Assembly: GCF_003991155.1 (NCBI RefSeq) | Contig: NZ_CP031293.1 | Reading direction: 5' to 3' (one strand) | DNA from: Escherichia coli | GTDB lineage: Bacteria; Pseudomonadota; Gammaproteobacteria; Enterobacterales; Enterobacteriaceae | DNA length: 64,000 nt | In this document: positions 22,901 through 25,900 of the stretch, piece after piece | Numbering within the stretch: the stretch's first letter is position 1 | Layout of the letters: each line of letters begins with the position of its first letter | Program-made: the position numbers

Positions 22901-25900
22901 AAGGCGTTTATTACCGAGCAGTTTATCAACTGGTCGCTCTCTGACTCGGTCACGCGCGTGGTGTTGACGATTCCGGCCCCTGCCGATGCCAACAGTGAAG
23001 AAGTGACGGAAATCCTGCTCACCGCAGCGCGTCGCTGCTCGCTGGTGATCGACAACCCGGCACCGGAAGTCTTCCTGGTGGATCTGCAACAGGGGATTCA
23101 GATTTTCGAGCTGCGTATTTACGCCGCTGAGATGGGTCACCGTATGCCGCTACGCCATGAGATCCACCAGCTAATTCTGGCAGGCTTCCATGCCCACGGT
23201 ATCGATATGCCATTCCCGCCCTTCCAGATGCGTCTGGAAAGCCTCAACGGTAAACAAACGGGGAGAACGCTGACGTCTGCGGGCAAAGGTCGTCAGGCGG
23301 GAAGTTTATAAGGTTTTGTAGCCGGATAGTCTCATCCGGCTCACCAACAAAACAGATAGCGCAGGGAAAACTGCCACAGCCAATAGAAGAGCATTATTGA
23401 AATAACAAAATATTGCCAAAGAGAGTGCTGTTTCTTCCAAATAACAGCATAAATATATGGGATGAATAATGGTAAGGTCATTATAATACCAACTGGGCGA
23501 ATATCATCATTCTCAAGATATGTCATAACATCACAAACATTATTAATTCCTCTACCGTCGATAAACCACTCTTTGTCTTGAACAGATAAAAAATCTATCC
23601 AAAATATGCTTATAACAAACCAGATAAGGTTAAGGGAAAATGATTTCCAGTTCATCATAGATTATTCATTATTTTCATTAAAGCAGTTTTCTTTTCAAGA
23701 ATACGTCGACCATATTCACTGTATTCTCTCTGATGGGATCCTTTCGGTGCTGCAATGGAGTCTATAATATCTTGTTTATTTCTTTCAATACCACGGTTGT
23801 ATCGGGAGCCGACTACAATTAACTGCTCATCCGTTAAATTAGTGGTGTCACCTATTTCCGGATAGTCATAATGTATAAGGTCTCGTAAATGAAATGCTAC
23901 CACTCTAATGTTGAAGCGGTCATTTAGTAAGCACTGGGAAAGTTGGAACTGCTCAAAGGATGACAAAAGATCTGGATGTATCCCTATAGTCCTGGCTGCA
24001 ACGCCTAACTGTATTGCGACAGAACCGACTGAAGTAGAGTTTGAGTAGGTATTGCCTCCTCTCTTTGAAACGGCCTCTAGGATTATTTTTAATTGCAGCA
24101 CCCCCACTGGTTTAAATCTTTCTGGCATTCCGCCAACCTCAGCAGCCGCAACGCCCGCAAGTAATAATAACGGGATTTGCGCCTCTTTGGCATATTGCCA
24201 CAACATATCACGGTGATAAATCAACCATGATGTTTTATATAACCATAAGTGTGCAGTCCCCGTGCTGAATGTCCAATTAGTCGGAAGAAAACGCCATCGA
24301 AAATAATCAATGCCATTCCATTTAGGAAAGCCTAATTCATCAACTTCGCAAAAAATAAGATTATTCATTTAAAGTCCCTTATTAAAATCATTCCCAGAAT
24401 GAAGAATAGTACTATCATCAGAAAAACTGATTTGTGATGGGACAGACAAAAAATATAAAAAAGGGTTCGACTTAAGATAATCAAGATAAAACATATATAC
24501 CCAATAAACCTCAAGATGCGGGTGTGAGCACCTGAAAGTGATCGTTAATTCGGGATGTCAGAGAGTCCGCTATATCCGGCAGCGTCTGGTTAAAAAAGAC
24601 AGAAAAACGGGATACATTATATTCATGAATGGTTTTATATTCGCAGATTAGCGGTGACGTCAGTGCTTTCAGATTCAGCGCCCCCATGATATTCAGGCGT
24701 GTGCGGCAGCCTGTTGTTTTTACTGCTTTTTTCTGGCCTTTACGTATCCAGCCATAGCTGATTTTAGTGGCCTGAGTCGGATGGACTCCATCAATAAAAA
24801 GAACCGGTTCATCACCCACAGTTATTTTCAGTTCCTCATAATATTCAATGAATTGCCTTTGTTTCTCTTCACTGAATTTATGGGGGACGCCTGACGGTTT
24901 TTTGTAGGTGAAACCATTACGATGCAGCCACTTATTCATCCCCGGAATGCTGAAAATGATGTTCCATGTCCGGGTGATAAACGCAATAACATCGCGGGTA
25001 TGGTGAAATAAATTATCGGATAACTGGCTGATTAAAAGGCCGTTTGTTCAGCACTGAGTTTGCTGTCTGAGCCGCCGTTTTCGGGCTTCAGTTTTCCTTT
25101 ATTCAGGAATTCGCTGATATGGTGATCAATCGTTGTCTGATGCAAGCGTAAAGCCTGAGCAATCATGGCAGAACTCCAGCCTTCGGAAACCAGAAGAATG
25201 GCTTTAATACGATCTCTGACTCGCCCGTCACGACTGGAATCATGAAGGCGTTCAAGTTCAGCTTTTTGTTGCTCAGTAATGAATATTTTCATGTTGGACA
25301 GCATGATCTTCTGTTGCTGAAAAATCAAGCATCTTCAATGATCACGGGTATATAAGGTGAATATTTATTGTTTTTAATATAAAAATCGCTTGCCCAACTT
25401 ACAGAGTGACTGCAAGCTGGATAATATACTCGTCATACTTCAGAACGGTAAGCAAACGGGGTGAACGCTGACCTCTGCGGCTAAAGCGCGCCAGGACGGC
25501 GGTATATAAGGTTTTGTAGCAGGATGGTCTCATCCGGCTACAAACAAAACTGATAGCGCAGAAAAAACTGCCACAGCCAGTAGCCGAAAATCACAAGCGC
25601 GGTGGCATACATAAACCAGCCGCGTTTTTTTCGCCACAAAGCGAACCAGAGAAAAGGGAAAAAGAGCGGTAACGTCATTATCACACCGACATCGCGGGTA
25701 TCATCATTTTCCAGATACTCCAGCACATGGCAGATATTTTTAACCCCACCTTCATCAATCATCCACTCTTTGTCCAGCGTGGAAGTGATGACTATCTAGG
25801 GGATCGCTACAACAAACCAGATGCAGCATAAGACAAACGTGCGCGCACTCATAAGATAACCCGTAGTTTAATTTCGCTATAGCGCATACGAAATCCCACT

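Follow-up and report, generated by a model that had tools for sequence, protein, structure and literature searches.

Two alternative alleles in tandem beside mscM in Escherichia coli: stacking of a gene pair that most likely encodes a type VI secretion effector and its immunity protein

We analyzed a 64,000-nt stretch of Escherichia coli DNA (NCBI RefSeq assembly GCF_003991155.1, contig NZ_CP031293.1; hereafter, the window), in which the interval between mscM and yjeM carries an insertion of ~2.2 kb bounded by direct repeats. The insertion places a pair of small genes immediately beside mscM, and the origin and probable function of that pair are our subject. mscM (19988–23311, plus strand; 1107 aa), the conserved anchor gene, encodes a miniconductance mechanosensitive channel and was delimited from the list of open reading frames (ORFs), the RefSeq annotation of identical loci, and an alignment of gene tails. 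yjeM (25950–27452, minus strand; ORF list and RefSeq annotation), an amino-acid transporter gene, is the conserved flank on the far side. From the mscM stop to the yjeM stop, the distance is 2,638 bp in the window versus 705 bp in a K-12-type genome, in keeping with the initial annotation of this stretch, which had put the interval at ~2.6 kb and larger than in K-12.

Comparisons of the locus with itself by blastn and by find_repeats both returned one strong direct repeat, 23246–23386 against 25444–25583, which spans 141 nt at 85.1% identity with one 1-nt gap (E = 2.5e-40) and has a period of 2,198 bp. Other repeats in the surrounding 11 kb were at chance level only (E ≥ 0.3), and the repeat unit had no further occurrence within the window. 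Each copy contains the terminal 66 nt of mscM, stop codon included (23246–23311 in copy 1, 25444–25509 in copy 2), a spacer with a hairpin, and the last ~46 nt of a convergent yjeO-family gene. The hairpin lies at 23320–23341 in copy 1, where it has an 8-bp stem, and at 25518–25539 in copy 2, with one stem mismatch; a terminator consensus scan flagged neither, because the T-run is absent. Beyond the repeat, weaker similarity continues through the bodies of the two yjeO genes (71% over 23471–23577 vs. 25668–25774). The initial annotation, which had proposed this self-comparison, described a near-identical repeat at 23244–23340 and 25441–25537. The repeat is real and in that place, but it is 85% identical and extends ~45 nt further. 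The stop that had been reported in the mscM frame of copy 2 is indeed there, as a TGA at 25462–25464 in the position of an AGA in mscM, and the frame reads LQNGKQTG*TLTSAAKARQDGGI* (asterisks, stop codons).

Two further elements described earlier between the repeats, a 237-aa ORF and a remnant of an IS630-family insertion sequence (IS), are likewise present. Adjoining mscM is yjeO_B (23341–23658, minus strand), which we take to be the incoming gene; it encodes a 105-aa small membrane protein of the YjeO family (DUF2645) and has a guanine-plus-cytosine (GC) content of 34%. Its start overlaps by 4 nt the stop of the 237-aa ORF, here called P237 (23655–24368, minus strand; 40% GC). The upstream, or promoter, region of P237 is severed by the IS into a proximal part (24369–24492, minus strand; recognized by aligning the IS-removed sequence to Citrobacter Cf136) and an 87-nt distal part (25357–25443, minus strand; local alignment to the Citrobacter intergenic region). 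An illegitimate joint at 25443..25444, marked by the abrupt start of mscM homology, leads into copy 2 of the repeat. Past the mscM relic in that copy come yjeO_A (25538–25852, minus strand; translation, alignment, and annotation of identical loci), which is the displaced resident yjeO of E. coli type and a pseudogene, and a 3′ stub of yjeN of ~50 nt (25853–25901, minus strand; alignment with K-12-like and Nord1 loci).

The IS is a remnant of ISEc40 (24493–25356, minus strand; NCBIfam NF033545 on both ORF fragments), 97–98.5% identical to an ISEc40 copy and with an internal deletion of ~243 bp. Its transposase reading frame is broken into two fragments, and the element is defective. Because both terminal inverted repeats are present and TA-flanked, as read from the end sequences, ISEc40 is a simple insertion; it arrived later, has since decayed, and had no part in the mechanism. 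We therefore rejected the IS630-family element as the cause of the rearrangement, since its ends are intact and TA-flanked and it touches neither repeat.

The two yjeO genes are far apart in sequence. yjeO_B matches Pfam PF10840 (E 5.4e-29, model positions 3–98 of 98) and is the AT-rich, diverged copy, with 52% amino-acid identity to K-12 YjeO and 80% identity to the partner gene of Citrobacter sp. Cf136. yjeO_A, by contrast, is at least 90% identical to K-12 YjeO, its nonsense codon aside. That codon, a TAG at codon 19 (plus-strand CTA at 25796–25798), inactivates the gene, for which the Prokaryotic Genome Annotation Pipeline annotated a 74-aa remainder only. Between the YjeO_A and YjeO_B proteins, identity is 52%, and their genes have GC contents of 47% and 34%, respectively. 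A second YjeO gene had been noted correctly, but as the diverged member; the diverged gene is the first (yjeO_B), and the second is ordinary yjeO in pseudogene form. The proposal of a module duplication also fails, as the YjeO genes are alleles with 52% identity and the 237-aa gene is present only once.

The mscM relic in copy 2 is of a type that we call tail B (GAACGCTGACCTCTGCGGCTAAAGCGCGCCAGG). It was identical at 63 of 67 positions to the in-frame mscM tail of strain GF3-3, compared with 49–54 of 67 for the tails of K-12, E. albertii, Escherichia sp. E4930, and Salmonella, and none of the island-free complete E. coli genomes (those lacking the insertion) matched it at ≥90%. Judged by these alignments, the relic is of foreign type and is not derived from the present mscM tail of the window strain. 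The layout had been likened to loci at which a 3′ gene fragment is duplicated along with its small partner gene; the repeated fragment stems instead from mscM, a convergent housekeeping gene that acted as the homology arm, and the relic is a foreign tail B. No donor of tail B was found in E. albertii, Escherichia sp. E4930, Salmonella, or island-free complete E. coli. The first three carry yjeN(-yjeO), have standard tails, and lack a relic. A one-genome-per-species scan with the P237 protein yielded P237 loci from other genera only. Citrobacter sp. Cf136 was considered and dismissed as a direct donor, since neither copy is related to its mscM tail and spacer.

Outside E. coli, the gene pair is a regular occupant of this site. 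P237 has ~110 relatives, nearly all in Enterobacterales, and the closest in a named organism other than E. coli is that of Citrobacter sp. Cf136 (89% amino-acid identity); a 1.3-kb read-assembly contig reached 91%. At 10 of 10 syntenic loci (three Citrobacter species, Cronobacter, Trabulsiella, two Atlantibacter, two Enterobacter, and an uncultured Enterobacteriaceae genome bin), the interval from epmA/yjeM to mscM holds P237 and, after it, a DUF2645 gene, both convergent with mscM. The low GC content of the cassette (40% in P237, 34% in yjeO_B) also occurs in Citrobacter and is therefore the cassette's own property. The mscM-yjeM site is thus a variable locus for a two-gene cassette, which is P237 plus DUF2645 in most Enterobacteriaceae sampled. 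In typical E. coli, P237 is absent and the site holds yjeO only, with or without yjeN, or nothing; yjeN itself was found only in Escherichia and Salmonella, always at this site. Because the P237 pair is usual here in other genera, the arrangement of typical E. coli is an alternative allele, and the stack in the window consists of both alleles of one variable mscM-yjeM locus in tandem.

One locus, in Enterobacter sp. ENT03, showed a repeat at its other edge: the last ~128 epmA codons recur after yjeM and before P237 (locus record 3439–3822). This looks like a similar scar, left where a gene was added together with its neighbor's 3′ end.

To place the window among its relatives, we scored locus states in 5,426 complete E. 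coli genomes. The yjeN-yjeO state, as in K-12, was found in 2,153 genomes, yjeO with a yjeN stub in ~830, and neither gene, as in O157:H7, in ~2,400. The stack was present in 44 genomes (0.8%), always complete, always at the mscM-yjeM site, and with identity of at least 99.4%. It is neither the K-12 state nor the ancestral E. coli state, nor is it common, as a comparison across E. coli suggested by the initial annotation was meant to reveal. The window lacks ~270 bp of yjeN, a deletion common to the ~830 "yjeO-only" genomes (e.g., Nord1). At 25853–25935, the yjeN stub and the site of the ~270-bp deletion are followed by a conserved hairpin, GCGCCCTATCGTCAGGCAGACGATAGGGC, upstream of yjeM. In the alignment with GF3-3, gap positions show that yjeN is intact there.

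Carriers differ much less within the island than around it. Relative to the window, the island is 0.7% divergent in GF3-3 and the mscM and yjeM flanks are 2.4–2.9% divergent; in VCSW7, the corresponding values are 0.14% and 1.9–2.5%. Alignments of mscM tails placed the left switch points of three carriers at different positions: ≤23245, 23275–23283, and 23303–23306. In GF3-3, tail B is fused in frame to full-length mscM (…TSAAKARQAGGL*), and in VCSW7, mscM switches to island type in mid-tail, so that the strain with an alternative 3′ end fused in frame to mscM, which the initial annotation proposed to look for, is found in full in GF3-3 and in part in VCSW7. In the window, standard E. coli mscM gives way to island-type sequence between 23303 and 23306 (feature 23304–23311), and mscM ends in TTT-A-TAA, compared with TTT-G-TAA in island-free E. 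coli. This left crossover fell right at the stop codon of mscM, which is why the functional tail is of standard E. coli type and the relic is foreign. These data show that ordinary homologous recombination in the flanks carried the finished stack from one E. coli lineage to another.

The architecture of the end product also constrains how the stack was first formed. Without the IS, the region upstream of P237 measures ~211 nt, and its nt 15–204 align to the yjeM-P237 intergenic region of Citrobacter Cf136. Citrobacter-type homology thus stops only ~15 nt short of 25443, the yjeM-side edge of the donor, and mscM homology sets in abruptly at 25444 in every alignment. Therefore, a single non-homologous joint suffices, and the end product contains one such joint, at 25443/25444. 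It links the yjeM-proximal edge of the P237 allele to mscM of the yjeO_A-yjeN allele, 66 nt before the stop. A 44-aa ORF on the minus strand (25399–25533) runs antisense to the mscM-tail relic and across this joint; it is most likely a chance product of the junction.

From this, we infer that donor DNA comprising an mscM 3′ end, the spacer, yjeO_B, and P237 together with its upstream region would have entered a cell of the yjeO_A-yjeN type. One donor end would have recombined by homology in mscM, and the other would have been joined illegitimately inside the tail of the resident mscM. The old tail relic, yjeO_A, and yjeN were displaced downstream as orphans, and mscM is intact because the incoming DNA supplied its own tail. 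Homology-anchored recombination in mscM with an illegitimate join elsewhere is the simplest route to this structure, and one-sided homology plus an illegitimate join has been proposed for effector-immunity additions in Vibrio cholerae (PMC5361080). A site-specific integrative island was rejected: the ORF list and a profile scan revealed no integrase ORF between 23311 and 25950, and repeats of 141 nt at only 85% identity are unlike short identical att repeats.

Once displaced, yjeO_A has been decaying, through independent inactivating mutations among carriers. The TAG at codon 19 is shared by the window, ECOD1, and MRY15-117; GF3-3 has two frameshifts in yjeO_A, with yjeN intact; the gene is also interrupted by an IS3 insertion in SX4; and it is intact in VCSW7. 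The putative effector gene is also being lost in some carriers. In ECOD1, which is otherwise identical to the window, P237 is split by IS1 (ECOD1 locus record 2156–3646).

A function for the pair is suggested by the proteins themselves. P237 has a lytic-transglycosylase/lysozyme fold, with a type VI secretion system (T6SS) muramidase, Tse3, as its best structural match. Residues E77, S113, G115, Q120, and Y190-N-R-G193 are invariant in the family and occur in the same order as the motifs of lytic transglycosylases. Neither a signal peptide nor a transmembrane segment was found in P237. P237 and 25 family members had no Pfam match even at E ≤ 10, SLT PF01464 included, and NCBIfam and PADLOC searches with P237 were also empty, so that the relation to transglycosylases is visible at the level of fold and motif only. 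P237 did match phrog_11932 (E 9e-25), a PHROG family of unknown function. Its residues 188–224 (YNRG…EYxxYGRRIL), the most conserved stretch of the family, gave, in a profile search against PDB sequences, a weak, non-significant match to phage phiKZ gp034 (9xps; E 0.25), to which we gave no weight. A phage origin was rejected, as tblastn of 50,697 phage genomes returned no P237 match; phage genes were absent near P237 at every locus.

The partner is a constant companion. At 17 of 17 loci, the P237-family gene is directly followed by a DUF2645 gene, and the stop codon of the first usually overlaps or abuts the start codon of the second. In YjeO proteins, hydrophobic segments are parted by an acidic loop of 30 aa (net charge −4 to −6) and then a short basic loop; of two conserved cysteines, one lies in the acidic loop and one at the C-terminus. 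Hydropathy together with the positive-inside rule predicts that the acidic loop, the C-terminus, and both cysteines are periplasmic. Pairwise identities of P237 and DUF2645 covary (Spearman 0.92), and DUF2645 diverges faster.

A further association comes from loci away from mscM. Of 7 loci located elsewhere than at the mscM site, 6 have an orphan Hcp gene directly next to the pair (Dickeya, Pectobacterium, Xenorhabdus, Serratia, Rahnella, and E. coli ygiZ, between mdaB and qseC). This Hcp is always 159 aa long and is 52–74% identical across loci. At the mdaB-qseC site of E. coli, 1,261 of the 5,426 genomes carry Hcp-P236-ygiZ, where P236 is a 236-aa protein of the P237 family at 34% identity (a paralogous cassette; PN43 locus record 2989–4520), and ~3,300, K-12 included, carry ygiZ alone. 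The triad versus lone ygiZ is the pattern expected for orphan immunity genes. Across E. coli, yjeO is kept in ~56% of genomes and ygiZ in ~85%. Outside Enterobacterales, a P237-DUF2645 pair occurs in the betaproteobacterium Advenella kashmirensis near integrase fragments and HigB-like toxin genes, with a second 237-aa gene 2.4 kb away (locus record 1870–2583 and 5001–6053); there, the cassette may travel on mobile elements.

The combination of a signal-less wall enzyme, an obligatory periplasm-facing partner, an adjacent Hcp, and widespread orphan partners is characteristic of T6SS effector-immunity pairs. P237 probably acts as an antibacterial effector, cutting the glycan strands of peptidoglycan in the periplasm of neighboring cells, and the DUF2645 partner would block it as an immunity protein through the acidic, cysteine-bearing periplasmic loop. 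Judging from association and fold, P237-YjeO is most likely a T6SS effector-immunity pair that forms, with the displaced gene, a small orphan-immunity array. We give roughly even odds to the broader proposal that P237 and DUF2645 constitute an undescribed, Hcp-linked family of peptidoglycan-cleaving T6SS effector-immunity pairs in Enterobacterales, with YjeO and YgiZ as orphan immunity proteins and mscM-yjeM and mdaB-qseC as chromosomal swap sites at which such pairs are traded, stacked, and lost. In our searches, no paper named the P237 family, DUF2645, YjeO, or YgiZ as an effector-immunity pair. Taken together, the proposed origin of the stack and the T6SS effector-immunity function make up the explanation that we favor, with reasonable though far from full confidence.

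Other origins of the stack would leave some of the same marks. A circularized fragment of ~1.3 kb could have entered by a single Campbell-type crossover with the resident mscM-tail/spacer/yjeO-3′ homology, the cassette having the same function. One crossover in ~140 nt of homology would yield the full unit flanked by hybrid repeats at a period of 2,198 bp, and only one illegitimate joint would be needed, the circle junction being 25443/25444. We nevertheless consider this unlikely, given that an integrase, an att-like core, and a replication function are all absent, that a 140-nt arm at 85–94% identity poorly supports a single crossover, and that the product is the same as that of one-sided homology plus an illegitimate join, the documented route (PMC5361080). 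The stack, or P237-yjeO_B beside mscM, might alternatively be original in Escherichia, with K-12-type loci arising by deletion between the repeats and the 44 carriers as survivors. The pair does sit at this site in other Enterobacteriaceae genera, recombination of copy 1 with copy 2 would give exactly mscM-spacer-yjeO_A-(yjeN)-yjeM, and the cassette shares 82.8% DNA identity with Citrobacter Cf136, about the same as mscM. Such antiquity is very improbable, however, when the island diverges by 0.14–0.7% between lineages whose flanks differ by 2–3%, when just 0.8% of genomes carry it, when E. albertii, Escherichia sp. E4930, and Salmonella have standard tails without a relic, and when tail B occurs in island carriers only; the breakpoints also differ among carriers, as import predicts. 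Finally, direct repeats flanking an insert with an IS630-family element in between could suggest an in-place tandem duplication of the mscM tail and yjeO that later diverged, or a structure generated by IS630 transposition. We find either scarcely credible: the YjeO proteins are 52% identical with GC contents of 34% vs. 47% although the flanking repeat is 85–94% identical, P237 is single-copy, and the IS, which has both of its ends and is TA-flanked, lies within the upstream region of P237, clear of both repeats.

The function of the pair could also be read differently, as an endolysin-holin-like or wall-remodeling pair of the cell's own, serving lysis, protein release, or remodeling tied to the neighboring mechanosensitive channel. 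A signal-less enzyme of muramidase fold in one operon with a ~105-aa membrane protein resembles phage lysis cassettes, the phrog_11932 match (E 9e-25) points the same way, and the pair keeps a stable place by housekeeping genes across genera with no T6SS gene adjoining. Yet none of the 50,697 phage genomes gave a tblastn match, orphan Hcp adjoins the pair at 6 of 7 loci outside the mscM site, DUF2645 ends after its last hydrophobic stretch without the charged C-terminal tail typical of holins, and a partner standing alone in thousands of genomes fits immunity rather than a holin. We judge this reading to be quite improbable.

Several observations nonetheless weigh against the combination of stacking and T6SS effector-immunity function that we favor. 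The order of events is a reconstruction, because no donor of tail B without the stack was found. At the mscM site, neither the window nor the 10 syntenic loci has an adjacent Hcp, VgrG, or PAAR gene, and a mobile weapon would not usually keep one place between housekeeping genes from genus to genus, which could hint at a housekeeping role. The covariation of P237 and DUF2645 identities is confounded by shared ancestry. ISEc40, 124 bp upstream, may silence P237 in the window strain. In SX4, yjeO_B has a stop at codon W19 with P237 intact (SX4 locus record 3030–3344), which is unexpected if P237 endangers its own cell. This is the same tryptophan codon as that hit in yjeO_A of the window, and the stop may represent parallel loss at one codon, or the partner may be dispensable in SX4. 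In addition, we found no published functional study of yjeO, yjeN, ygiZ, DUF2645, or PF10840.

The repeat itself is an ordinary recombination scar. The stack is of interest as a natural record of how a gene pair is added by a housekeeping gene without breaking it, and the cassette offers a testable function, immunity, for yjeO and ygiZ of K-12 and for the whole of DUF2645. The P237 family, which has no Pfam or NCBIfam model, is likely a new type of T6SS cell-wall effector. If so, yjeO (~56%) and ygiZ (~85%) would be retained as protection from neighbors that are still armed, and the window would preserve the scar of one stacking event in which a housekeeping 3′ end served as the recombination arm.

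Beyond the locus, psd (18998–19966, plus strand; ORF list and RefSeq annotation) precedes mscM, and the window annotation places epmA and then frdA beyond yjeM.

A close parallel is with the orphan immunity arrays of V. cholerae (Kirchberger et al. 2017, PMC5361080). In both, a new pair is added beside a conserved anchor, and the older immunity gene persists downstream, its effector missing. For the V. cholerae arrays, formation by homologous recombination at one side and an illegitimate join at the other was proposed, with spread by homologous recombination at variable breakpoints (PMC5361080). At the mscM locus, we likewise found yjeO_A and the relic downstream of P237-yjeO_B, a single joint, and homologous spread. 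The initial annotation had likened the layout to displaced orphan modules at polymorphic loci. The analogy is apt in that the cassette resembles an effector-immunity pair, and a new module does lie by mscM with the older small gene displaced and decaying, but the relic comes from a housekeeping gene. There are also differences from the V. cholerae arrays: the mscM locus does not lie in a T6SS cluster, a convergent housekeeping gene provides its 3′ end as the anchor and the relic is a piece of mscM rather than of an effector, the immunity gene rather than the effector is nearest the anchor, and there are two immunity genes only, of which the displaced one is decaying and not maintained.

Among individual effectors, the P237 pair is similar in logic and fold to the Tge1-3 pairs and to Tge1/Tse3-Tsi3, with no detectable sequence similarity between these and P237; Tse3 is also larger, at ~400 aa compared with 237 aa. 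Immunity proteins of the Tsi type are either soluble in the periplasm or lipoproteins; DUF2645 proteins, at ~105 aa, are integral to the membrane. Orphan modules of Rhs and of contact-dependent inhibition (cdiA-CT/cdiI) systems are alike in being stacked, with older modules downstream after a short relic of conserved upstream sequence. In those systems, however, the relic is part of the toxin gene and the orphans can be re-activated by recombination; here, it comes from the unrelated, convergent mscM and has no such potential. The ygiZ locus of E. coli itself (mdaB-[Hcp-P236]-ygiZ-qseC) offers a paralogous counterpart within the species, with a P237-family gene followed by DUF2645 and a polymorphism between full and orphan forms, and it differs from the mscM site in that an Hcp gene is part of the cassette.

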